IMG/VR virus record: IMGVR_UViG_3300006896_000005 | Location: 1-28,194 of that record | DNA: 28,194 bases | Source of the DNA: a virus | Taxonomy: Duplodnaviria; Caudoviricetes | Strand: one strand, 5' to 3' | Part shown: one piece after another, positions 2,953 through 27,325 of the stretch | How positions within the stretch are numbered: the first letter of the stretch is position 1 | How the letters are laid out: each line of letters opens with the position of its first letter | The notes under the pieces: model-generated | What the model was told of the DNA's origin: nothing | Databases searched by the model: none | What the model saw: the letters and a program-made list of their open reading frames with translations, nothing else | Program-made: the position numbers and the translations under genes

Positions 2953-3509
2953 TGGACGAGATATTTAAACCGCATAGATATCGCCCCCATATGGCCCTAG
3001 ACCGAGTTAATGGCGTAGCACTTAAAAAAATGGCAGAGCGCAGGGGGCTCAGTATCGCAAAACTATCAGAACTTGCCTCTGTTCCACAAAGCACCATTGG
3101 TAACTATCTGTATGGACAACAGTTGCTGGCAGAAAGCAGAACAGTGAATAAACTGGCAGAGGCGCTGAAGTGTGACCCTATAGACATAATCCTTTGTCCG
3201 GGCGAAAGATCGCCCGTATACACGCTTAAGTCAAAGCCAGAAGCTACGGTTGACGATTTAATGCTCATGCCCAAGCCTGAGTTTGTAGTGGGAGATAAAT
3301 ACCACTTAAAGAGCAAGGGCGGCCAGTGCAAGGAGTTCGCTAACGGATATTTTAAGTTTATTGGAACGGCCCCTGCCGCCAACGGCAGGACACATTATAT
3401 GTTTCTTCACACTGCCGGGAAGTACCCCTTAACGCTGACAGAGATTGATTTTCTTTGTAAGGCGGTTGTGGCAGTAAACACAAAGGAACTGGCAGGTAAG
3501 GCCTCATGA
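2952..3509 (+). CDS. XRE-family HTH protein
   Basis: LKKMAERRGLSIAKLSELASVPQSTIGNYL...VNKLAEALKC; ATG 2952 overlaps the upstream TGA and follows SD AGGAGGTGG. Confidence 0.75.
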   Translation: MDEIFKPHRYRPHMALDRVNGVALKKMAERRGLSIAKLSELASVPQSTIGNYLYGQQLLAESRTVNKLAEALKCDPIDIILCPGERSPVYTLKSKPEATVDDLMLMPKPEFVVGDKYHLKSKGGQCKEFANGYFKFIGTAPAANGRTHYMFLHTAGKYPLTLTEIDFLCKAVVAVNTKELAGKAS

Positions 3510-4141
3510 TGGAGAAAAAAGTCAGTATGGCTGTAGTTATCGCTCTCTGTATAAACTCGTTCTCGGTAGGCTTTTGCCTCCGGGGGGTCATGTATCCACC
3601 AAGGATTACTACGCAAGAGATATGGCGAGAAGCGATTCCCATAGAGCGTATTGTTAAGGAACGCCCTATTCCAGAGATCAGGCACATACTGGAGGCCAAT
3701 CCAGCTATGAACCGTAACGAGGCCAGAGAACTTTATGAAACCATCGAGCGGGTAGTAGGGAGCTTTAAATCCGACCCCAACTATCAGGGCGGAGTGGCAC
3801 GCAAAGTAGATGCAAGGCTGATCCTCAGCCTGATTATCACAGAGAGTAATTGCAGAAAAAAGACGAGGGGAACGTCTGGCGAAATAGGGCTGACGCAGGT
3901 CATGCCATTTCACGCTAAAAATCTTCACAGGGCAGGGATACTTGACAAGCCCCAAAGCAAAGAGCTCTGGGATACAGAGAAAAACATTAGGGCAGGAGTT
4001 TTTATCCTGATGGCAAACGCGCTCAAAAGCAGTTCTATCAAAGAGGCACTGGCTAAATACAATGCCGGGCCCAAAAGGGTTAGGGTTGGAATGCCTTATG
4101 CCAAGAGAGTAATGGATCAATACGGCCAAATCAATGGCTAA
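3506..4141 (+). CDS. Lytic transglycosylase (SLT domain) with N-terminal hydrophobic anchor
   Basis: SLT motifs IITES (catalytic Glu), IGLTQVMP, NIRAG..L, ALAKYNAGP and YAKRV; hydrophobic residues ~6-25. Confidence 0.88.
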   Translation: MMEKKVSMAVVIALCINSFSVGFCLRGVMYPPRITTQEIWREAIPIERIVKERPIPEIRHILEANPAMNRNEARELYETIERVVGSFKSDPNYQGGVARKVDARLILSLIITESNCRKKTRGTSGEIGLTQVMPFHAKNLHRAGILDKPQSKELWDTEKNIRAGVFILMANALKSSSIKEALAKYNAGPKRVRVGMPYAKRVMDQYGQING

Positions 4142-5502: not shown

Positions 5503-5842
5503 ATGACGGTTAATGATAAAGTTAAACAAGCTATGGCAACGACAACAGTAGGCGCCGCAAGAACTGCCAGTCCCATGGATTCCATGCTGGCACTATTGGC
5601 AAAGGATACCATGAAACAACAGTTCGCCATGGCACTTCCGGCGCACCTTAATAAAAACGCAGACAGATATATAAGATCATTCATGACACAGCTAAGACAA
5701 GTACCAAAACTCCTTGACTGTTCGCAATCCTCACTCCTAGGGGCAATGCTCACGGGTACAGCGCTAGGGCTAGATCCCACGCCATCACTTGGAGAGTTTT
5801 ATATCCTTCCTTATGGCAGAGAGGCGACGTTCCAGCTTGGGT
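5503..5842 (+). CDS. recT: RecT family recombinase, exon 1
   Basis: PKLLDCSQSSLLGA...LGLDP...GEFYILPYG..ATFQLG is the RecT N-terminal half; ends at the U of the group I 5' splice site. Confidence 0.92.
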
Positions 5843-6654
5843 AAACTTTTGCTCAAGTAAAACCGTGTGAACCCTATTACTCAGGGGTGTCTACAAAAGT
5901 AGGCTAACGGTGAAACCCTCCGATATTTATAGGGCAATACCGTGCTATTTACCGAACCTCCATTGACGGAGGTGGTGCCAATGATGGGAGTATATAGAAT
6001 CACAAATCGCATAACTGGAGATTTCTACATCGGGTCTAGTGTGGATATTAGGCACCGGATGGGACAGCATTTTAGCAAATATAAGGTGCGGCTCCACACG
6101 GAAAGATTCGATCAGGACTTGCAGAGATACGGCAAGGACGGATTCGACGTAGAGGTTATCGAGGAATGCGAGTTCGATGAACTCCGAGAGCGAGAAGAGT
6201 TTTATCTTTGCAAGTATCATCCACCATACAATCTAAGGTGGAAGGGGTACAAGCGCTCAGAAGAGACGAGGCGCAAGCTCAGCGAAAAACTGATAGGGCG
6301 CACCGTTCCAAGAGGGGTTGTCGAAAAGGCGCGGCTTGCAATACTTAAACGTCACGAAACAATTCCGCAGACCAATGCTGGGCATAAAAAGCGGGTCAGC
6401 GTGGACGGAGCGGAATTTGAAAGTGTAAAGGCTTGCGCAGAATACTTCGGTGTGAATCCTTCTACAGCTACACAAGCACTAAAGAAGGGACACAAATTAC
6501 TTGGGCATGAGGTTCGGTACGTAGTGTAGAGACTAGCCGTGATGAATGTAGCGGCGTAGAGCGGGGGACGAGTTGCCGCTCGAAGTGCATGGCAACCCTA
6601 CTGGGTTGAAGAGATAGTCCACCCCTCCGTGATGGTAAAACGGAGGATTAGGTG
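5843..6654 (+). ncRNA. Group I self-splicing intron (IA2-like), 812 nt, inside recT
   Basis: P1 CUUGGGU/GCUCAAG with U5842.G5851 wobble; P3 CCGUGU 5863-5868 / GCAUGG 6587-6592; P4 CGGUG/UACCG; P6a 5950-5960 / 6509-6519; P7 GACUA 6531-6535 / UAGUC 6615-6619 within GAAGAGAUAGUCC; P7.1 and P7.2; P8 CAACCC/GGGUUG; P9 CCUCCGU/ACGGAGG; terminal G6654; removal restores the reading frame. Confidence 0.93.
5981..6529 (+). CDS. Intron-encoded GIY-YIG homing endonuclease (NUMOD3-like repeat + C-terminal HTH)
   Basis: GVYRITNRITGDFYIGSS..I..R..QH GIY-YIG domain; SEETRRKLSE NUMOD3-like motif; FESVKACAEYFGV NUMOD1/IENR-like HTH; SD GGAGGT at 5968-5973; lies in the P6 loop. Confidence 0.92.
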   Translation: MMGVYRITNRITGDFYIGSSVDIRHRMGQHFSKYKVRLHTERFDQDLQRYGKDGFDVEVIEECEFDELREREEFYLCKYHPPYNLRWKGYKRSEETRRKLSEKLIGRTVPRGVVEKARLAILKRHETIPQTNAGHKKRVSVDGAEFESVKACAEYFGVNPSTATQALKKGHKLLGHEVRYVV

Positions 6655-7145
6655 ACAAAGGAATGTTGGCATTGGCTTACCGGGGCGGGGTAAAAAAGAT
6701 CTGGGCGCACGAGGTTTGCGAGAACGATGAGTTCGACCTTGCTTGGGGAGGGGAAGAGTTTCTTAAGCATAAACCCTGCCTTGATAACGAAAAGGGACGC
6801 GGGGAGGTTACTGGATACTACACTGCGGCCATCCTGCCTAATGGACAAACCACTTTCTTTTACATGACAAAAGCCGACGTAATAATACACGCCAAGAAGT
6901 TTAGTCCTTCTTGGAACAGGGGGCCTTGGCAGACAGACTTTAATGAAATGGCAAAGAAAACCTGCGCCAAACAGCTCTTTAAGTGGTTGCCAAAAAGCAC
7001 CGAGATGGCACATGCTATTGAAAGGGATGAATCTATCATCAAAGCAGAGCCTGCGCATGTTATCCAAGATCTCGAAGATGTCTTGGAGATGGAAGTAAGC
7101 TCTGTGGAAGAGATAGAATTGGCTGAAGCAGAACAGACGGCATAG
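6655..7145 (+). CDS. recT: RecT family recombinase, exon 2 (spliced product 276 aa)
   Basis: T5842+AC AAA GGA ATG gives Y-K-G-M, then LALAYRGG..V.ENDEF...GPWQTDFNEMAKKT..KQLFKWLPKS, the RecT C-terminal half. Confidence 0.92.
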
Positions 7146-11538: not shown

Positions 11539-12075
11539 ATGGCAAGAAGGGACTATAGATTCGTAGGCTTTGAGGACGAGAAGACTATTACCGAAATAAT
11601 GCTCCGTGCCTTACCTAAGGTCTGTAGGGCCCGTGTGGACAGAGAGGCGTGGCTTGACAGTCTCGCCCTCTCTGGGCCATCTGGATCTTCTATAGGCAGG
11701 GTCCAAGGCGGCACAGACGTAGACAAGGCCCAAAGGCTTATTGAAAAGAAGGAATCAGATAAGGTTTTGGGGTGGCTTAGGCTTATTGAGGTTAGGCTTT
11801 GTGATAAGATACAACACCTCTCACAACCTGAAAGGGCTGTTATAAGGGAGTATTATTTAACTGACGGATATCCGCCGGACCGTGAGGTAGCTAGGAAGCT
11901 TAAGATAAAAAAAGGCACTGTCCAGTCTATCAGGTTAAGGGCCAGAAATAAAATGGTAAGAGCCTGTACGAGCGTGTATCATGTGTTCTGTTTGTGGCGG
12001 GAACAGGATGAACTTGATTTGGATCAGCGCGGAGGCAGTGAGCTTGATAAAATAATAAAGGAGGAGGCGGCTTAA
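11539..12075 (+). CDS. Sigma-70 region 4-like transcriptional regulator (putative late-gene activator)
   Basis: LSQPERAVIREYY......REVARKLKIKKGTVQSIRLRARNKM; last gene of the replication operon. Confidence 0.7.
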   Translation: MARRDYRFVGFEDEKTITEIMLRALPKVCRARVDREAWLDSLALSGPSGSSIGRVQGGTDVDKAQRLIEKKESDKVLGWLRLIEVRLCDKIQHLSQPERAVIREYYLTDGYPPDREVARKLKIKKGTVQSIRLRARNKMVRACTSVYHVFCLWREQDELDLDQRGGSELDKIIKEEAA

Positions 12076-15703: not shown

Positions 15704-15984
15704 TCCGCTCCCCCCTTCGCTTCCTCCCACTTACTTACGGCTTCCTCTAACGCCGATTCATCAATAATCCCGTCAAGTACGTCTGTTATGCGCTTGGATA
15801 AGGTGTTACCTGCTTGCTTTAGGACTAGTTTCTTTTTACTTGTCTTAAAATGAGCTTCAATACTCTCGCAACGATCATCATATATGGATTGATAACGTGT
15901 CTTAAGCTCGGCGTTCTCTATCTCCATCTCCTTCACCCTTTGTGTTAGTTCGCACTCTCGGCAGAGGTCAGCGGGGTTGGTCAT
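15700..15984 (-). CDS. Hypothetical coiled-coil protein
   Basis: MTNPADLCRECEL...; SD GGAGGG; ATG 15984 preferred over the track start. Confidence 0.55.
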   Translation of the reverse strand: MTNPADLCRECELTQRVKEMEIENAELKTRYQSIYDDRCESIEAHFKTSKKKLVLKQAGNTLSKRITDVLDGIIDESALEEAVSKWEEAKGGAE

Positions 15985-16345
15985 TAGAGACCCTCCTGTT
16001 CCATGCGGTGATGGCTTCAGCTGTTGTATAGAATACTTCTCCCTGCGCTGAACAGTTATAACAAAACACAAATGTCTCAGTCGTGAAAAAACCACTATCA
16101 TTTACTCCAGCCTTATCCCCACAAAATGGACACCGATCTATTAAACTCTCTATTTCTTCTTCGCTCAAATCATAAATAGAAAACAGCTTTACAATTAAAT
16201 CTGTCGGGACAGGTACTTCGCCTGTTTCAATCTTTGACAGATACGGGCACGTGTAACCCAGTGCATCAGCCATATCTTTCAGCAAGATGCCCCTGTTGAT
16301 GCGTATCTGCCTTAGAGCTTTACCAAAATATGTTTGCTCCATCAC
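15968..16345 (-). CDS. XRE HTH fused to Lar-like restriction-alleviation zinc ribbon
   Basis: FGKALRQIRINRGILLKDMADALGYTCPYLSKIETG (HTH) followed by CPFCG...CYNC......EAITAWNRR (Lar family signature). Confidence 0.8.
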   Translation of the reverse strand: MMEQTYFGKALRQIRINRGILLKDMADALGYTCPYLSKIETGEVPVPTDLIVKLFSIYDLSEEEIESLIDRCPFCGDKAGVNDSGFFTTETFVFCYNCSAQGEVFYTTAEAITAWNRRVSNDQPR

Positions 16346-17055: not shown

Positions 17056-17285
17056 TTTTGTCTCTTATTGGGGCTTTTTAAATAAAACTCACCTGCACAA
17101 CGGGCATGAAAAAAACACACTGCACGTAAATCAACTGGCCCTATGTGAATTAGCTCAACACATATGCCTTCTTCGTCATTAAATGGCTTGCCACACACCC
17201 CACAAAGCACCGGGATAAAAGTTTTTTCTTTTGTTTTATATACGTCCACTATCCATCGCCGCCCCTTCCCTGCCCATCTGTTCAT
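17040..17285 (-). CDS. Small zinc-finger-like hypothetical protein
   Basis: CGVCGKPF...FFHARC. Confidence 0.55.
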   Translation of the reverse strand: MNRWAGKGRRWIVDVYKTKEKTFIPVLCGVCGKPFNDEEGICVELIHIGPVDLRAVCFFHARCAGEFYLKSPNKRQKEGAE

Positions 17286-17775
17286 CTAAATCCCTTCCCT
17301 GATAAACAGTCTCTCCCAGCAAGTACGCCTGACTTACTCCAAGCGCTTCTGCCAACCTCCTCAGCCTATTGCCTACAGGGTTGTATTCTCCGGCCTCCCA
17401 GTAAGAAATTGTGCCCTGTTTTACATTGACCTTTTTTGCGAGTTCTGTCTGAGACATACCTATGTCTATTCTTTTTGTTTGTATTCTTACTCCAATAGAA
17501 CTGCAAGAACGGGAGCAGTCTAAAACTGGAGCAGAGCCTTGTTGCTGGCTCCGCCCCTCCAACTTCTCTATGTGAATTGATTCGGCTTGCGGCAGTTTTT
17601 CCATAAAATCAACCACCTCGTCAACTGTGCCTCCGGGCACAATATAGTCAACCGTGACCCTCCACACGCTAGACTCCCGCTTTTCCAGTACGCTGTTTAT
17701 TATTTCATCCATCAAGCTGGTCTTTAAGAGCTTGGCTGGTTTATTTTTACTGGACAAAGCACACCCTCCTGTCAT
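17236..17775 (-). CDS. Protein with C-terminal XRE HTH domain
   Basis: IGVRIQTKRIDIGMSQTELAKKVNVKQGTISYWEAG..NP....LRRLAEALGVSQAYLL. Confidence 0.8.
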   Translation of the reverse strand: MTGGCALSSKNKPAKLLKTSLMDEIINSVLEKRESSVWRVTVDYIVPGGTVDEVVDFMEKLPQAESIHIEKLEGRSQQQGSAPVLDCSRSCSSIGVRIQTKRIDIGMSQTELAKKVNVKQGTISYWEAGEYNPVGNRLRRLAEALGVSQAYLLGETVYQGRDLDEQMGREGAAMDSGRI

Positions 17776-17799: not shown

Positions 17800-19332
17800 T
17801 TAGCACGAACAGGTCTCTTCGTTAATCCCCCTTTCTTCCATATATGCCTTTAATTCCGGGCTGTAGCATTCCATTTTTTCAAGGAATTCAGAGGGGGCCA
17901 TGCTCCATATTTGATATCTTGTGTGCGCTTCAGCACACGTGATAAGGAAGTCGAAGTAATGGAGGCACGCTATGATAGATGAGACCTTCATCGTTCCCCT
18001 ACATGCCCTGAACTCGACTGTTCCAACCTTTGTCAGGTTAATGGCAACATACCTGTCGTTCCATCTGGACGTTTTCTTTGCAATAGAGACGGTTCTGGCA
18101 AAATCCCCTTCGGATTCTATGGCCATAGGTCTCTTCCCCCACTGCGAGAGCCTATTCTCCTTACGCCTCGATACTCTAAACGTGGTGTTCCAGAATTTAT
18201 TGACCAGCATAAGCAGTTTGGCAATGGTTTCACAGGACATGGAGTTCTTGGATACATGGAAGTGCAGGCCACAGGTACTCGTATCGTGGCTTCTGTATTT
18301 GTTTTTAATAAGGAATTTCATGGCCTCCTCTAGTTTACCGAAGAAACCTGCCTGTTTCATATAAGCCAGTGTCATTGGCTGGCTGATAAGCTCAAATCCG
18401 CAACGCAGAGACCCGTCACTCTTTGCCATCCAATAGTTCCACGCCTCATTTTCGCCATGATTAAGTATTCTGCCAAGTACGTCTTCTACAATATTATCGC
18501 GCCTTTCTCTTCCCCATGGGTCACAGTCATCCGGTATATCTACCTCTATCTCCATTCCGTAGTAACGGGCAACAACAGGCTCGCTTTCTTCTACACGATA
18601 GAAGCACCGTGGGGTATTGTCGTAAGCGCCGTGCATTAAGGTCGGAGGTTCGCGGTGCTTCAGCGCGGCTGTTGAAAGTATGTATTCCTCTGACATTTCA
18701 TGCTCATCGTCTTCACCAGATCCGCTCCTAGCATCACAGTGATCGCCGTTTTCCTCCCAGCAGGATTCGCACATATACTCTTCGGATTCTTCATTCCAGA
18801 ACATTTCGTTTCTCCGAAATGCTCGCCCACATTCAGAACATGTCTCGAAGCTATGGTCATAGCAAGATTCACAGACACACCCTTCTTCTGTTTGATAAGC
18901 ACAGTCATCGTGTTCTATGCGCCCGCATTCTTCACACCTAAAATAGTTTTGGTTAAAACAATCTTCGCACATATCGCCCCCTCCGTAATCTCCGGCATAC
19001 GAAGAGCCGGAATAAAAGTTGCGGCAGTCAGAACACTGGAAATAATCACCGTCAGAATAACAGTCGCCGCATATGTGTATATCGAGATCTTCTATGTATA
19101 TCGAATCATCTGTCAGGTGATATTCATGGCATTTATCGCAAAGACTATAGTTAGTTAGACAGGAAGAGCACACAAAATCTCCGTCGGCAATTTCGGTTGC
19201 TTCTGACGGTTTTATTTCTTCACAGCAATTTGCGCATATAACCATCTCTTCTTCCTCTGTGGCATCTTCTATTGTTTCTATCTCAGGTATTTCAATCACG
19301 GGCGCTGATACTTCAATAACGATAGATTCCAT
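17800..19332 (-). CDS. Amidoligase (COOH-NH2 ligase, Amidoligase_2-like) with N-terminal zinc-ribbon repeats
   Basis: YGMEIEV, KSDGSL..GFELISQP, TCGLHFHVS, RYVAINL and TVEFR motifs; 10 CxxC motifs in an acidic N-terminal region. Confidence 0.85.
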   Translation of the reverse strand: MESIVIEVSAPVIEIPEIETIEDATEEEEMVICANCCEEIKPSEATEIADGDFVCSSCLTNYSLCDKCHEYHLTDDSIYIEDLDIHICGDCYSDGDYFQCSDCRNFYSGSSYAGDYGGGDMCEDCFNQNYFRCEECGRIEHDDCAYQTEEGCVCESCYDHSFETCSECGRAFRRNEMFWNEESEEYMCESCWEENGDHCDARSGSGEDDEHEMSEEYILSTAALKHREPPTLMHGAYDNTPRCFYRVEESEPVVARYYGMEIEVDIPDDCDPWGRERRDNIVEDVLGRILNHGENEAWNYWMAKSDGSLRCGFELISQPMTLAYMKQAGFFGKLEEAMKFLIKNKYRSHDTSTCGLHFHVSKNSMSCETIAKLLMLVNKFWNTTFRVSRRKENRLSQWGKRPMAIESEGDFARTVSIAKKTSRWNDRYVAINLTKVGTVEFRACRGTMKVSSIIACLHYFDFLITCAEAHTRYQIWSMAPSEFLEKMECYSPELKAYMEERGINEETCSC

Positions 19333-19344
19333 AATATCTCCTCC

Positions 19345-19689
19345 TTATTCTCTGCTGATTCTGCCTAGTTTATTTGCACCCAATACCCTATGGGTCTGTT
19401 CGTCTCTTATTATCCCAAGCGGAAAGAACAGATCATCTCTGCCCCTTGCCGCCTGAGCTACCATTTGTGATACAATTAATGCAGTACCCTCCTCTGGGTC
19501 TGGCAGGTCAACTACCTCTCCGTGGTTGACCCAAGCAACGGGGATGCCCATTACAGGCTCCCCATCTTCTTCGTTAATAACGATTCTTGCACATAGATCT
19601 GAGGGGTCTATCGTAAAGGCACCTCCTCCAACAAGTATCCGCACTTGATGTGGCGTAAGGTTTTTAATTCGCTTTGTTTTTTCATCCAT
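19345..19689 (-). CDS. Small NLTPH-motif protein
   Basis: IKNLTPHQV...PS...ARI...LPDPEEGTALIVSQMVA...R.DL..P..IRD; I recognise this as a recurrent phage family but the function is uncertain. Confidence 0.7.
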   Translation of the reverse strand: MDEKTKRIKNLTPHQVRILVGGGAFTIDPSDLCARIVINEEDGEPVMGIPVAWVNHGEVVDLPDPEEGTALIVSQMVAQAARGRDDLFFPLGIIRDEQTHRVLGANKLGRISRE

Positions 19690-19692
19690 GCA

Positions 19693-20859
19693 CTAATCCT
19701 CCATGCTCGTGTCGTAGCAACCACCCTTGAATTCCCTTGTATACACCCCTGCAAGGGCGTGATCGGACATGGCTGATTCGTATCCTTCCTCTTGACCTAC
19801 AGCCCTGCCGTCACAGAAACCTATGTTGTACTCTGAAGATGGGTCGGCTTTTGCTGTAACCTTATCAAAGTCGTTATTTTCTGTGAACTCGACACTATTA
19901 CGACCATCGTCATACCCTTCCTCATATCCTTCCTCAAATCCTTCGCCATATCCCCTTAAATATTCACCGGCTTCCTTCATTGGAATAACCTTGCCCTGTT
20001 TGGGAGACTCCTTTTTCTTCTCAGACCCACTGGCCTTTGTATCTATTACGGGCAGGGCGCTTGATTCAGGCTTCTCCTCCTTTTTTAATTCAGTCAGCTT
20101 CACTGCTTTTGTTTCAGTTGCCTTACTTACACATGGCTCTCGGTATATTCCATTAAAGTAATAATCTGGGTCATAATCATTCCCGGCGTAAGAGGTAAAT
20201 CGTGTATAATCAGACCCCCTCCAGTAGCCCTTAGATGCCTTGACCAATTGCCTGTCTTCTTTTCCATTCTTCCACTGGTATCCATCAGGGAGCTTCTCAC
20301 CAAAAGGCATGGCCTCAGGGAGCAGGGTAGAGGCATGGAGAGTGCAGTTGCCCTTATTCCATTTGTGTAGTGTGCCCCCTGCCTGCACTGCAAAAGGAAG
20401 TCCTCCGACACAGCCGATAAATACGCTGGATAGTTCTCCTAATGCTTTTGTCGCATCGTTCAGGCCGGCTCCGACGATATTCTTAAATATAATCTCAGTG
20501 TCTGTCCGGTTAAATGCTCCGGCGATGGTCCTGAGGGTATATTCCGTACCGTTCATAGCAAGGCAGTCGTTGTCAACCACAAACGGATGACAATTAGCAT
20601 CGTTGGTCCCTCCTACACTGTTTATCCTTGTGTGATAGATAAGATAGTCCCACCTTACCTTTCTAATCCTGCCGTATATCTCCCCGTTGGACAGCTTGAC
20701 CCCCTTGCGTGATTCGATTATCGTTCTGTCCTTTATGAGCGCGTATCCGTTGCCGTGTCCGCCGCATTCCTTCTCCAAGTGGTTCATCAACGCAAGAATG
20801 CCATGCTTCCTGTCAAATAGGTTAAAATCGTTCTTGCTTACAAGTAATACTCTGCACAT
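19693..20859 (-). CDS. Class II (Ntn) glutamine amidotransferase-like protein with acidic C-terminal tail
   Basis: M-C-R N-terminus (catalytic Cys after Met removal), HGNGYA, YHTRINSVG, NCHPF, MNG and TDTE motifs. Confidence 0.85.
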   Translation of the reverse strand: MCRVLLVSKNDFNLFDRKHGILALMNHLEKECGGHGNGYALIKDRTIIESRKGVKLSNGEIYGRIRKVRWDYLIYHTRINSVGGTNDANCHPFVVDNDCLAMNGTEYTLRTIAGAFNRTDTEIIFKNIVGAGLNDATKALGELSSVFIGCVGGLPFAVQAGGTLHKWNKGNCTLHASTLLPEAMPFGEKLPDGYQWKNGKEDRQLVKASKGYWRGSDYTRFTSYAGNDYDPDYYFNGIYREPCVSKATETKAVKLTELKKEEKPESSALPVIDTKASGSEKKKESPKQGKVIPMKEAGEYLRGYGEGFEEGYEEGYDDGRNSVEFTENNDFDKVTAKADPSSEYNIGFCDGRAVGQEEGYESAMSDHALAGVYTREFKGGCYDTSMED

Positions 20860-20907
20860 ATACACATCATCCTTTCAATTTTTATTAAACTGGACTGATA
20901 CAAGCTG

Positions 20908-22779
20908 TTATTCGCCATCTGGAGATTCATCTGGGAATAGCGGAATGCATTCATATGGGGCGTAAACATACCTTGTGTGATATTCTGTGCTGGTAGTGGC
21001 ATACGTTGACTCAGTGTCTATTTCGCTTGTCGGTATCACGGTTGGACTCATATCGTCATTTAGCCACGTACGCGCCCTTTCGCCAGAGATTCTTATTAAT
21101 TCGTCAATAGCACCAAGGTCCTGTAAACTCGGCGGCTGAATTGGCTCGTCGATGCTCCGTGGGGCAGGAGACAATGGGGCTTGTCTCAGTAGTCCTCTGT
21201 ATGGATTTGGACGATCGAAATCTTGCCGAGGTGGAGTCAATGGGTAGCTTCTGCCATATATGCGCTCGGTCATAGTGCTGGCAGTCAACTCACCGGGACC
21301 TGGAGCCGAGCACAAACCACCACAACCACCACTTTGGGCTTGATTAGGTGCGCTTCCAGCAAACTCACCAAATATCGGGTTATACCTAATTCGCGGTGAT
21401 TGCTCTGTGATATATTCCTCTATATTTGGCAGTCTTTTTTCTATCAGCATATCAAGTTCCGGGCTGAAGCCCTTGGCATTATTCACAAACTGTTTCCATT
21501 TCATCCTATATAGCCTGTAAGCAGTAATGTTCTCCGCGATATCTATCATGTACCGGAACAGGTCGAGGCAACCGCAGAATGTATTTAGATCCAGAGTCCC
21601 CTTAAATATCCGAAACTCTACCGTAGACTCATTTGATACATTGAGCGCTGTATGCCTTTCTCTTAGTTCCCTGTTTCTAACAAGAACACTGACCGCATTT
21701 ACCTTTTCCTCTGAGTTATTGGCTTCCCTAAAAATACGCCTCAACGTAAGCATGTGTGATCTGGCGTATTCGTCGTATGTACAAATATCAGTCCTCCCGC
21801 TCAAATTAAATAACTCAGATCTAAATCTCTCAGAAAGCAACAGCAGTTTTACTATTGCATCCAAACTCAGGCTGTCGCGTGATACATGAAAGTGCAGACC
21901 GCACATTCTGGTTTTTTCACTCTCCCAACCGCAAGCCCTCAGCAATTTCAGCGTCTGCCTTAACAATGGCTTTATTTCACACTGAAAATATCCGAAGGTG
22001 AACGGCTGGCTGATAAGCTCAAAAGAGTTGGGGCACTCTCTTCGTATACTTCCATCCTCCTCGAAATAGAAACGCCCATAGTTGTCTGTCTGGGCAATCA
22101 TCTCTGTCATTTCGCCCGAACGGACATTTCCAAGACCACCTATCACCTCCAACTCAAAACCAAAGTGCCTATTTGTTTTTTCCCATGGCTGTCTATAAAA
22201 CAATGGCTCTTCTTCCTTGTGATAGTGCCACTGTTTTACATGCACTTCTCTGTGTTCCCGATCCTTACAGGAGTAACACTCATTGCATATCCTTCCCCAC
22301 ATGGATTCGACCATGTTTTCACTAACACAATACCCTCCGCATTGCTCGCACTTTTCCATTCCCTTAATGCACTCTGCGCATAGATTATTCTGGGGATCGC
22401 CCCTGTTAGATACGCTAAAATAATCTCCACAAGAATTGCATTGGAAATAGTTTTTACTCCTGCACTCACGGCACGCGATCACCTTTGTGCCGTCGTGAAG
22501 CCGTAATTTACATATACCAGATTTTGGAATTGCCTTCCCGCATTCTGGACAATATGTATAAGCTTCGTTAAAACACTCTTTACACACAAAGAATGTTCCA
22601 CTATGAGGATTATTAACACTAATTAAATCCTCTTCTTTGTGCCATGTATTACAATGTTGGCATGAGAAGATCCCAAGTTTGTGCAAACAATCTAACCCGC
22701 ACACAATGTGCCCCTCCACCTCGAACATGCGACTTTCTTCGTCCGTTTTGCCGCAATATTCGCAAGTCAACATTTTCAA
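20908..22779 (-). CDS. Second amidoligase with N-terminal zinc-ribbon repeats and Pro/Ser/Thr-rich tail
   Basis: HFGFELEV, EEDGSI, FELISQP, MCGLHFHVS, RHTALNV and TVEFRIFKGT; 9 CxxC + 1 CxxxC; TTG 22779 after SD GGAGGTGA (track start 22794). Confidence 0.85.
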   Translation of the reverse strand: MKMLTCEYCGKTDEESRMFEVEGHIVCGLDCLHKLGIFSCQHCNTWHKEEDLISVNNPHSGTFFVCKECFNEAYTYCPECGKAIPKSGICKLRLHDGTKVIACRECRSKNYFQCNSCGDYFSVSNRGDPQNNLCAECIKGMEKCEQCGGYCVSENMVESMWGRICNECYSCKDREHREVHVKQWHYHKEEEPLFYRQPWEKTNRHFGFELEVIGGLGNVRSGEMTEMIAQTDNYGRFYFEEDGSIRRECPNSFELISQPFTFGYFQCEIKPLLRQTLKLLRACGWESEKTRMCGLHFHVSRDSLSLDAIVKLLLLSERFRSELFNLSGRTDICTYDEYARSHMLTLRRIFREANNSEEKVNAVSVLVRNRELRERHTALNVSNESTVEFRIFKGTLDLNTFCGCLDLFRYMIDIAENITAYRLYRMKWKQFVNNAKGFSPELDMLIEKRLPNIEEYITEQSPRIRYNPIFGEFAGSAPNQAQSGGCGGLCSAPGPGELTASTMTERIYGRSYPLTPPRQDFDRPNPYRGLLRQAPLSPAPRSIDEPIQPPSLQDLGAIDELIRISGERARTWLNDDMSPTVIPTSEIDTESTYATTSTEYHTRYVYAPYECIPLFPDESPDGE

Positions 22780-22800
22780 ATTACTCACCTCCATATGGGT

Positions 22801-23073
22801 TTAACCGCAATAATTACACTTACCGAAAGATATCTGTGTTTTAATGGCATCGCAGATGAGCAAATACTCATCCTTCGTAATGTTATATTTTCTCAACACC
22901 TCCTGTCTTGGCAGAGCTTCTATGAACTGCATATTTCCACATCCTCCACCCTGAGCAAGTTCGGGAGCCATGTCTTGCATTTCTCCAAATCCTGAGTAAC
23001 GAGCTACGCGACCATTAATCTCAAATTCCTGTAGATCACATCTATGCGTACAACGCCAGCACGCTAGTCTCAC
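22801..23073 (-). CDS. Small Cys-containing hypothetical protein
   Basis: CWRC, GCGNMQF, VLRKYNIT..EY..IC and terminal CNYC; SD AAGGAGGT. Confidence 0.7.
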   Translation of the reverse strand: MRLACWRCTHRCDLQEFEINGRVARYSGFGEMQDMAPELAQGGGCGNMQFIEALPRQEVLRKYNITKDEYLLICDAIKTQISFGKCNYCG

Positions 23074-23098: not shown

Positions 23099-23133
23099 AA
23101 TAAGCAGACCCTAAAAAATCAGGTCTGCTTATT
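23099..23133 (-). terminator. Terminator-like hairpin upstream of the amidoligase module
   Basis: 12-bp perfect inverted repeat AATAAGCAGACC (23099-23110) / GGTCTGCTTATT (23122-23133); U-rich run at its base on the minus strand. Confidence 0.6.
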
Positions 23134-23230
23134 GCGTCAATATAAAATAACTAAAAACACTTTTATCTGTCACTGCAACCATTCACAATACCTCCTTACA
23201 ATAGTGTGATTTTTTGCACATAATTACTTG

Positions 23231-26033: not shown

Positions 26034-26129
26034 TTATCTGCGTATGCCGCCCTGTTTCAGTGCTCTTTTTGCCGCCCCGTCGATTAATCTTGTTATGTAA
26101 CGTCTCCAAGCTCTTTCCCTTGTGGTCAT
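26034..26129 (-). CDS. 31-aa Arg-rich peptide (not in ORF track)
   Basis: Hand translation MTTRERAWRRYITRLIDGAAKRALKQGGIRR; ATGA overlap with the DUF2958 stop. Confidence 0.4.
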   Translation of the reverse strand: MTTRERAWRRYITRLIDGAAKRALKQGGIRR

Positions 26130-26437
26130 TTCATCACGTCTCCCAGCGTCAGGTCTTTGGGCAGATGCAGATCTCTTTCGACACCAAGTCCAAACATCCC
26201 CCTGACTTCCTGAAGCTCACTCAGGCTGAAGTATCCGAACTCCCCTTCCTGTCCTTCTACGTAACCGAAGAACAGAAAATCGCCGTTCCCGCGCCTTTTA
26301 CCTTCAACCACATACCAGCTCCATGGAGTAATTGGAGCAAAAAACTTGCAGATCACCTTCTTCTGCTCTGCCGGGATATTCTCTGTGCTTCCTATTGCCG
26401 GGAGCTTTTTCTCTATTGCCTTGGTCATTAGCTTCAT
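26126..26437 (-). CDS. DUF2958 family protein
   Basis: KFFAP...WSWYVVE, FFGYVEG.E.EFGYFSLSEL, GLGVERDLH. Confidence 0.85.
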   Translation of the reverse strand: MKLMTKAIEKKLPAIGSTENIPAEQKKVICKFFAPITPWSWYVVEGKRRGNGDFLFFGYVEGQEGEFGYFSLSELQEVRGMFGLGVERDLHLPKDLTLGDVMK

Positions 26438-26471
26438 ACGACTTCCTCCTTTTATTGCTTACAATTTGTAA

Positions 26472-27071
26472 CTAGCAGGTGGCTTCCTTCATAAAAGCGC
26501 CGGGCGTCATGAATCTTGCCCAACTCATCTTCTTGAAGTCTCCAGCTGTCTTAATTCCAGCCTTTGAAAGCCTTGCTTTTATTTCCAGGCTTTCAGCATA
26601 TTCGCTGAACAGCTTGGAGATAAACAACCAGTCACCGTAGCTTGTCCGCTTGGATTCGAACCAGAAGAGCTTTTTGGTCACGTTATAGTGCCCAATTTTC
26701 ACGTAGCTGCCCTTATCAGACAGCTTGTAGAAAGTGTGGAAGCCGTCACTCTGATCGATTACGTAGTCTTTCTTTCCAAACTTAACTACCAACTCTTCCT
26801 GCTTCTTTGTAATTGCCAGCTGAACAGGGTTCAATTTAACTTCTTTGACCTCTTTCTTTGTTGACTTTTTGTTAGCTTTTTTCGGTGTTTCCATCTTCGT
26901 TACTTTCATCTGATTAACATTAACCATATTTGCCATAACTGCCGCCGTGATATTCTTTACAAGTTCTTCCATGCTGATATTTGCCATCTTTACCATTCCC
27001 TTCTCTGTCGTGGTCTTGTTGCTTGCCATTGTTTCACTCTTTGCGCCTGTTGCCTGCTTGTTGCCTGTCAT
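26472..27071 (-). CDS. Lys-rich hypothetical protein, first gene of the leftward block
   Basis: ATG 27071 after AAGGGGG (downstream ATG of MANISMEE also possible); the track extension to 27176 runs through an inverted repeat. Confidence 0.65.
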   Translation of the reverse strand: MTGNKQATGAKSETMASNKTTTEKGMVKMANISMEELVKNITAAVMANMVNVNQMKVTKMETPKKANKKSTKKEVKEVKLNPVQLAITKKQEELVVKFGKKDYVIDQSDGFHTFYKLSDKGSYVKIGHYNVTKKLFWFESKRTSYGDWLFISKLFSEYAESLEIKARLSKAGIKTAGDFKKMSWARFMTPGAFMKEATC

Positions 27072-27107
27072 GGTAATTCCCCCTTGAATTGTATTCAGAA
27101 AGATCCT

Positions 27108-27325
27108 TGTCTTTCTGTCTTTACTCAGTCGCTGTATGTCTTTTTGTCTCTCTACTGAGTAAAGATAGAAAGACATTCTGTCTCTCTATCGTCTATTTGT
27201 TATCTTATTTCCTGTCTTTCTGTTGATACAATAGAGCCCGTAACAGTCTTATTGCTGACTATCACGGGCTCTATGACACTTCTGTATTCTTTTTGTAAGT
27301 GTTCCTGTCAATGGCTTGCATTGAC
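27108..27325 (-). other. Structured 5' leader (three hairpins)
   Basis: 22-bp IR 27108-27129 / 27154-27175 (1 mismatch); 18-bp stem spanning 27231-27274; 7-bp stem 27307-27325. Confidence 0.6.

Follow-up and report, generated by a model that had tools for sequence, protein, structure and literature searches.

A phage amidoligase-GATase module with a duplicated ligase and an inserted gene for a Crn4-type ring nuclease homologue

The viral contig IMGVR_UViG_3300006896_000005 (a partial genome of 28,194 bases, analysed as a whole and called the window below) carries on its minus strand a PF12224 amidoligase and class-II glutamine amidotransferase (GATase) module, in which the ligase is duplicated and a gene for a Crn4-type ring nuclease homologue is inserted. 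We tentatively favour, at slightly less than even probability, a mechanism in which two ligases with separate targets share one GATase and amidate carboxylates on proteins in a glutamine-dependent manner, with Crn4 acting independently of them. Amidoligase-GATase modules are very common in phages and the core found here is ordinary. The embedded Crn4 gene, a second case of a ring nuclease beside such a module and the diverged second ligase make this locus a better-than-average entry point. An earlier, sequence-only reading had described five co-oriented genes spaced by about 3-50 bp, and this arrangement was confirmed (five minus-strand open reading frames, ORFs, with gaps of 6, 42, 3 and 12 nt in the order of transcription). 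The four genes which we assign to the module are, in the same order:

20908..22794, minus strand: amidoligase B, 628 amino acids (aa), PF12224
19693..20859, minus strand: class-II (Ntn) GATase-like protein with Cys2, by motifs and alignment; called ORF 19693-20865, 390 aa
19345..19689, minus strand: Crn4b-type ring nuclease homologue (formerly the "NLTPH protein"), 114 aa, by phmmer, profile and PADLOC matches
17800..19332, minus strand: amidoligase A, 510 aa, PF12224-like, with fingers at residues 33-191 and a catalytic domain of the glutamine synthetase/gamma-glutamylcysteine ligase (GS/GCS) fold at about 234-509

Family, fold and active site of the two ligases

Judged by their sequences, ligase B is a member and ligase A a probable member of Amidoligase_2 (PF12224). 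Ligase B scores 27.5 bits, above the gathering cut-off of 22. The closest homologues of ligase A carry PF12224, and ligase A itself gives amidoligase matches in PHROG. The two proteins are 27% identical (E 1e-42) and have in common the motifs GxExE, DGS, FELISQP, CGLHFH, R..A.N and TVEFR. All of these had been noticed before, together with ten Cys pairs in each ligase, and all were found again. The proposed COOH-NH2 ligase fold was also borne out, by the PF12224 profile matches and by an AlphaFold (AF2) model of ligase A (pLDDT 87, from a 52-sequence alignment), which predicts the GS/GCS catalytic fold. With Foldseek the model matched YbdK (best E 3.6e-6), glutamine synthetases, GmaS, Dop and PafA, and also viral amidoligases including Cys-array forms; with VIA it reached Z 11.4 (rmsd 4.3 over 230 residues), and Z was at least 9 for 17 GS/GCS/PafA/Dop entries. 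Thus, the predicted fold and active-site layout are those of PafA/Dop, YbdK, GmaS and glutamine synthetase (Z 9-11.4), while the identity to them is only 10-16% and these enzymes have neither zinc-finger arrays nor a GATase partner. In comparison with PafA/Dop, no gene for a Pup-like tag protein or a proteasome was seen.

The metal/ATP residues ExE, E, HxH, R and ExR are invariant in our alignment A1 or kept in both ligases. With its acidic, His and Arg active-site residues retained, ligase B is no obvious pseudo-enzyme. Its active-site loop is altered. The His of the SH loop and the first Arg of the RR motif are replaced, with R389 becoming a Gly. Of 172 ligase ORFs, 167 have the SH pair preceding CGxHxH, whereas the clade of ligase B has lost it; three of the five exceptions are ligase B and its orthologue counted twice. 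This orthologue, encoded in the related locus L077, is 41% identical to ligase B, and the C-terminal tail of ligase B (about 170 aa) has no counterpart in orthologues.

Finger arrays of probable LIM-like type and their charge

Ahead of the catalytic domain, each ligase has ten CxxC matches corresponding to five fingers. The number agrees with the sequence-only reading, but the fingers are probably of another type than the zinc ribbons proposed there. In the model of ligase A, DSSP revealed a hairpin with a knuckle, a second hairpin and a Cys pair at the start of a helix, a pattern seen five times. The best profile matches of the array in the PDB were LIM proteins (E 1.8e-4 to 4e-3), although matches between Cys-rich sequences may be compositional. 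Taken together, the model and the profile matches tentatively favour fingers of a LIM-like (treble-clef) type over zinc ribbons. At least four CxxC are present in 153 of 163 ligase ORFs and at least ten in 12 of them; with five fingers each, the window ligases differ from most PF12224 relatives, which have 6-8 CxxC.

The array of ligase A is strongly acidic (43 D/E vs 8 K/R) and that of ligase B near-neutral (25 D/E vs 19 K/R). In counts which include near-identical loci, 161 of 162 ORFs have an array with a net negative charge, and in 155 of 158 the array exceeds the catalytic domain of the same protein in acidity (medians -0.18 vs -0.04 per residue). Because of its strong acidity, the array of ligase A is unlikely to bind DNA or RNA, and its target is likely a basic protein surface. 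We infer that the arrays bind proteins. From the range of macromolecular targets suggested earlier, nucleic acid is therefore disfavoured by the acidity. For ligase B, the near-neutral array and the rebuilt active-site loop suggest a target different from that of ligase A.

The GATase

The assignment of the second gene to the class-II GATases withstood our analysis, with one correction concerning its start. Since a Met-Cys start is present in 27 of 27 aligned GATase sequences, the ATG ending at 20859 is most likely the start codon, which places the Cys at position 2. The motifs HTR78, NCHPF91, NG105 and TDTE121 are present, and the protein displays the class-II features N-terminal Cys, HxR, HP, an NG oxyanion hole and an Asp binding the amino group. 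Its homologues carry PF13522; for example, the homologue in the related locus L001, which is 43% identical and belongs to the same subfamily, matches PF13522 with E 7e-8. A weak profile match to the glutaminase domain of GlmS (1xff, E 0.066) has HTR, HP, NG and TD in register. At its C-terminus the protein has an acidic tail (window 19693-19990, minus strand) with GYxxG/GxxxG repeats, which is weakly FliH-like and was found in 27 of 27 aligned homologues.

A Crn4-type ring nuclease homologue within the module

The most informative gene of the block encodes the "NLTPH protein", the identity of which had been missed in the sequence-only reading. According to sequence comparisons, it is a homologue of Crn4b-type ring nucleases with the predicted catalytic His and Arg intact. 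Residues 8-111 match Crn4b (PDB 9r7b) with a phmmer E of 1.1e-10; the profile match to Crn4a (9sma) has E 8.6e-16, and that to PADLOC Unk_01 has E 6.9e-20 and covers profile positions 2-101 of 103. The Atlas model matched a domain that occurs in fusion with SAVED and TIR-SAVED proteins. Like Crn4b, the window protein is a short form lacking the insertion of Crn4a, and the active-site residues T12, H14, S74 and R95 are kept (T13, H15 and R112 of Crn4 correspond to T12, H14 and R95). R92 of Crn4a and E16 are Q75 and Q15 here. We do not treat these two positions as defining, because they vary among the aligned phage homologues and because R92 and E16 make mainly main-chain or stacking contacts to the ligand (PMC12830947). 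A single-sequence AlphaFold model of the protein was discarded (pLDDT 34.5).

Crn4 cleaves cA3 and cA4, and Crn4a also cA6, with H15 and R112 being essential (Chi et al. 2025, PMC12830947). By homology, the window protein is predicted to act against type III CRISPR or cA3 signalling. Phage-encoded Crn4 homologues were already reported as likely anti-CRISPRs; they were found in 11 of 28,137 phage genomes, and their anti-CRISPR role is described as yet to be confirmed (PMC12830947). Thus, the protein described here is a candidate for such a phage enzyme. Its location inside an amidoligase operon is a context not mentioned in the accessible part of that report. Carrying Crn4 may also have a cost for the phage, since its expression can trigger a cA3 guard system (PMC13577387).

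L077 has all four genes in the order of the window (ligase B, GATase, Crn4, ligase A), and the locus L163 retains the last three of them in this order. The two loci are near-identical to each other. L077 lies on a 5.4-kb contig of a metagenome-assembled genome labelled Bacteroidaceae, a label which may be a binning error. In L163 (3-485), a second, more diverged GATase-like ORF is located directly upstream of the GATase, at the place of ligase B in the window and in L077. Between the window and L077, Crn4 is 72% identical, the same value as for the GATase core. At fourfold-degenerate sites, where the identity over the four genes ranges from 16 to 44% (highest in Crn4, 18/41), divergence is near saturation. 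These values suggest long co-inheritance of Crn4 and the module under selection. Clusters whose longest contigs have the same length indicate, indirectly, that one contig of 63,889 bp carries all four genes and that, in a third lineage, GATase, Crn4 and ligase A probably share a contig of 17,972 bp.

A second, unrelated ring nuclease was found in L001, where AcrIII-1/Crn2 (11675-11995; PF08960, E 1.9e-28) is encoded 435 nt after the ligase-GATase pair. The position of Crn4 in the middle of the operon is a clue towards counter-defence rather than towards the usual cell-wall hypothesis; it is a hint, though no proof, of a role of the whole set in countering host defence. One could propose an integrated operon, in which ligases and GATase disable host immune proteins alongside Crn4, the acidic arrays mimicking DNA or attaching to basic defence proteins before these are modified. 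This proposal would fit the placement of Crn4, which lies between the GATase and ligase A genes not only in the window but also in L077, L163 and probably the third lineage. It would also fit the AcrIII-1 gene after a GATase of the same subfamily, and the Lar-like genes found close to the module in the window, L033 and L074. However, a single-sequence search of 169 relative loci detected Crn4 in two (the near-identical pair) and AcrIII-1 in one, and neither was present in 15 further loci. Conversely, ligase or GATase genes were found within 3-8 kb in 0 of 12 other viral Crn4 loci. Further, small accessory genes cluster in such regions anyway, and the commonest neighbours of the module are a resolvase and DUF960. 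Once the lineage of the window is set aside, one independent case remains, and thus the link between ring nucleases and ligases is a hint only. We regard the integrated operon as quite unlikely.

It is also conceivable, albeit unlikely, that zinc-finger amidoligase-GATase modules in general represent a widespread, unrecognised form of counter-defence. Acidic LIM-like arrays would dock on basic host immune or DNA-binding proteins, which the ligase would inactivate by amidation or glutamylation; duplicated ligases would hit different targets, and captured ring nucleases (Crn4, AcrIII-1) would mark anti-immunity islands.

As a separate observation, two of the seven strongest minus-strand hairpins of the window are located inside the Crn4 gene, at 19414-19458 and 19531-19575 (-26.5 and -21.1 kcal/mol).

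Relatives of the module and duplication of the ligase

An alignment search detected relatives in 520 stretches from viruses and 209 from genomes, of which the 80 best of either kind were retained and yielded 76 and 80 loci, respectively; the genome loci are nearly all from Clostridia. Of 118 ligase ORFs flanked on either side by 1.5 kb or more of sequence, 113 have a GATase gene within 1.5 kb, as do 37 of 46 at contig edges. The GATase profiles used were derived from these same neighbours, with Pfam confirming representatives. Among 264 scanned proteins, mostly representatives of neighbour clusters (n=401, singletons from genome loci excluded), one gamma-glutamyl cyclotransferase (GGCT) was found, in L065, and no ATP-grasp protein, so a module without these partners is normal for the subfamily. 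Their absence from the window, noted previously, was confirmed for its 48 ORFs, but the conclusion drawn from it, that the configuration is distinct, does not hold. The expectation that the gene set is conserved in other phages applies to the ligase-GATase pair and fails for the 90-aa Cys protein described below. Viral scans with ligase A alone and with a ligase B alignment gave no confirmed relative, and neither did a tblastn search of phage records with the GATase.

A quick tree (82 of 84 rows kept) places both window ligases in a single clade (SH-aLRT 96), with ligase B on a long branch together with its L077 orthologue and P0035. The other multi-ligase loci, L033/L052, L059 and L065, fall in other clades. 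Outside the tree, a 440-kb viral contig encodes one GATase followed by five tandem ligase-domain ORFs (L202:3600-9512). Ligase duplication is therefore recurrent. These data bear on the earlier suggestion of an obligate heterodimer of ligases A and B fed by the GATase. The common clade and the co-inheritance of both genes in the window and L077 would agree with it, but most relatives have one ligase per GATase, so that a fixed pair is not needed, both copies keep full catalytic sets, and extra copies, up to five, arise repeatedly. We consider such a heterodimer highly improbable.

In L160 (1524-4443) and also in L161 and L165-L168, the GATase belongs to the same subfamily, and the ORF ahead of it (436 aa) has no match to the ligase profile or Pfam and possibly represents a different ligase family. 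The L160-type GATase precedes a 164-aa ORF, which looks GGCT-like by eye and has no Pfam hit.

Comparison with known systems

Phage amidoligase-GATase modules were reportedly predicted by Iyer et al. in 2009. The system had been called undescribed in the sequence-only reading, but comparable arrangements are in print. A pair of ligase and class-II GATase was reported for MEP401/402 and more than 30 related genomes (PMC10580990), and cassettes comprising two amidoligases, GATase, ATP-grasp and GGCT were described in RIO-1/phiEco32/LUZ24-like phages, with a hypothesised role in cell-wall modification (PMC5498523, PMC3890496). Amidoligases were also found near thymidine-modification genes (PMC8989533), none of which were seen at this locus, and were listed as accessory genes (PMC11318856, PMC10945688). 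What is added here is the Crn4 identity within a module, the acidic LIM-like arrays and the altered loop and array of ligase B.

The window module is of a known kind, represented by the PF12224-GATase pairs of phages and mobile elements (MEP401/402, Mycobacterium phage Marvin, BFVD A0A6J7X5D3 and the "LIM domain containing protein" A0A6J7X2B6). Like these, it is located in a phage or mobile element and combines a predicted GS/GCS-fold ligase having all catalytic motifs and an N-terminal Cys-finger array with an adjacent class-II GATase. Unlike these, it has two ligases around one GATase, the second one being divergent, a GYxxG-repeat tail on the GATase and the inserted Crn4 gene. With the phiEco32/LUZ24/RIO-1 "peptidoglycan modification" cassette it shares two amidoligases and one GATase in a phage block. 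In that cassette, however, the second ligase belongs to PF14395 and ATP-grasp and GGCT are present, whereas both window ligases are PF12224-type paralogues in a temperate phage, and PF14395, ATP-grasp and GGCT had no hit among the ORFs of this partial genome.

For phiEco32/RIO-1-type cassettes, modification of the cell envelope for superinfection exclusion is the published hypothesis (PMC5498523, PMC10580990); here it would mean amidation of carboxylates in peptidoglycan precursors. A temperate phage would gain from it. Nevertheless, the block has no ATP-grasp or membrane partner, and a small lipid-linked substrate would give little reason for large LIM-like arrays. Our literature search, the coverage of which mostly excludes subscription journals, found no experimental test of this hypothesis and no tested function or substrate for phage amidoligase-GATase modules. 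We consider cell-envelope modification very unlikely for this module.

Proposed mechanism

In the amidation reading favoured here, each ligase would bind Mg-ATP via E261/E263, E314, H357 and E440/R442 (ligase A numbering) and, by analogy with the family, form an acyl phosphate on a Glu or Asp carboxylate; the amidation or peptide-ligation chemistry proposed earlier would thus be right. The amine would be ammonia released from glutamine by the GATase, because the pair is accompanied by no third tailoring enzyme and because free glutamine as the product would result in a futile cycle with the GATase. The LIM-like arrays would select the target. Crn4, for which the homology is strong, would be co-inherited counter-defence cargo which destroys cyclic-oligoadenylate alarm signals and is chemically unconnected to the ligases. 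Fold, residues, linkage and charge come from the data; the transfer of ammonia, a protein as the target and every activity are predictions. Two ligases differing in array and active-site loop but sharing one GATase are suited for a comparative substrate hunt.

Several points weigh against this reading. Of the profiles proposed earlier for placing the proteins, PF12224 is passed by ligase B, while ligase A remains just under the cut-off of 22 (20.6 bits, E 4.4e-4); PF14395 has no match to either ligase, and the window GATase has no Pfam hit of its own, including the GATase families. The acidity of the arrays, counted as described above, is an indirect argument for targeting. Retention of Crn4 across near-saturated silent sites is more than loose cargo needs. 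The GATase residues tested would bind a gamma-glutamyl moiety, which does not separate a glutaminase from a gamma-glutamyl hydrolase. Finally, GGCT accompanies a related ligase in L065 and is part of the published cassettes, which fits glutamyl transfer instead.

The last two points lead to the main rival, which we consider somewhat unlikely. The ligases would gamma-glutamylate an amine (protein Lys, a polyamine or a metabolite) with free Glu, and the class-II enzyme would be a gamma-glutamyl hydrolase removing or recycling the group. EgtA and EgtC are a precedent for such a pair of writer and eraser, and EgtC is a class-II enzyme. YbdK, GCS and GmaS, which are among the top structural neighbours, ligate free Glu to amines, and the GATase motifs fit either role. 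However, GGCT was seen once among the relatives, and since no third tailoring enzyme is conserved near the pair, a pathway of protection and deprotection would have nothing to protect for.

Boundaries of the block and neighbouring genes

Around the module, the following further features were considered:

23099..23133, minus strand: terminator-like hairpin with a 13-bp stem, 9-nt loop and U-rich tail, closely preceding the ribosome-binding site of the 90-aa gene
22801..23073, minus strand: 90-aa Cys-containing protein, co-oriented with the module; membership not supported
17236..17775, minus strand: XRE-type helix-turn-helix (HTH) regulator, 24 nt downstream of ligase A

The upstream terminator-like hairpin reported earlier was found, with arms at 23099-23110 and 23122-23133 and about -21 kcal/mol. 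It was missing from the list of our terminator scan, because its 9-nt loop exceeds the 8-nt limit of the scan. The possibility that its arm is a repeated operator was rejected (6 matches at 2 mismatches vs 3 expected). The 90-aa protein had been counted as the first member of the block. Its place in the module is unsupported, because a homologue was found in 0 of the 173 fetched relative loci searched. It had no match in Pfam, PHROG, NCBIfam or PADLOC, and Atlas scores were below 0.9; a 35% identical homologue is encoded in MT836092.1, a 13-kb record without ligase or GATase.

Downstream, the module has no boundary, as the HTH gene follows after 24 nt and then overlapping genes to about 15281. 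The HTH gene is likely on the same transcript as ligase A and is not conserved at the corresponding place in L077 or L163. A 28-nt inverted pair (17214-17241 / 23140-23167) seemingly brackets the module. It was rejected as a cassette end because one copy is inside a coding sequence, the sequence is AT-rich and the pattern was made post hoc. Further downstream on the module strand, an HTH domain is fused to a Lar restriction-alleviation domain (window 15968-16345, minus strand).

The phage carrying the module is temperate. The left arm of the window encodes an integrase (with matches at only 35% identity), a CI-like repressor, RecET, DnaB, SSB and RusA, and the accessory genes form the convergent minus-strand arm. 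A near-consensus sigma-70 promoter (11/12) is present at 27417-27390 (minus strand) ahead of the first gene of this arm, followed by the strongest minus-strand hairpin (-30 kcal/mol, starting at 27273). The arm opens at 26126-27176 with a DUF2958 gene and an ORF weakly matching the N-terminus of AccI-type restriction enzymes. On the plus strand, an SLT lytic transglycosylase gene (window 3506-4141) lies in the regulation and replication arm, away from lysis genes; in L061, too, an SLT gene is found close to the ligase. The recT gene is split, two RecT-matching ORFs (5503-5844 and 6663-7145, plus strand) flanking a GIY-YIG endonuclease (5942-6529). Rfam had no match to the window including this interruption, which is likely a group I intron of 812 nt, because junctions after 5842 (T) and at 6654 (G) would keep the frame.

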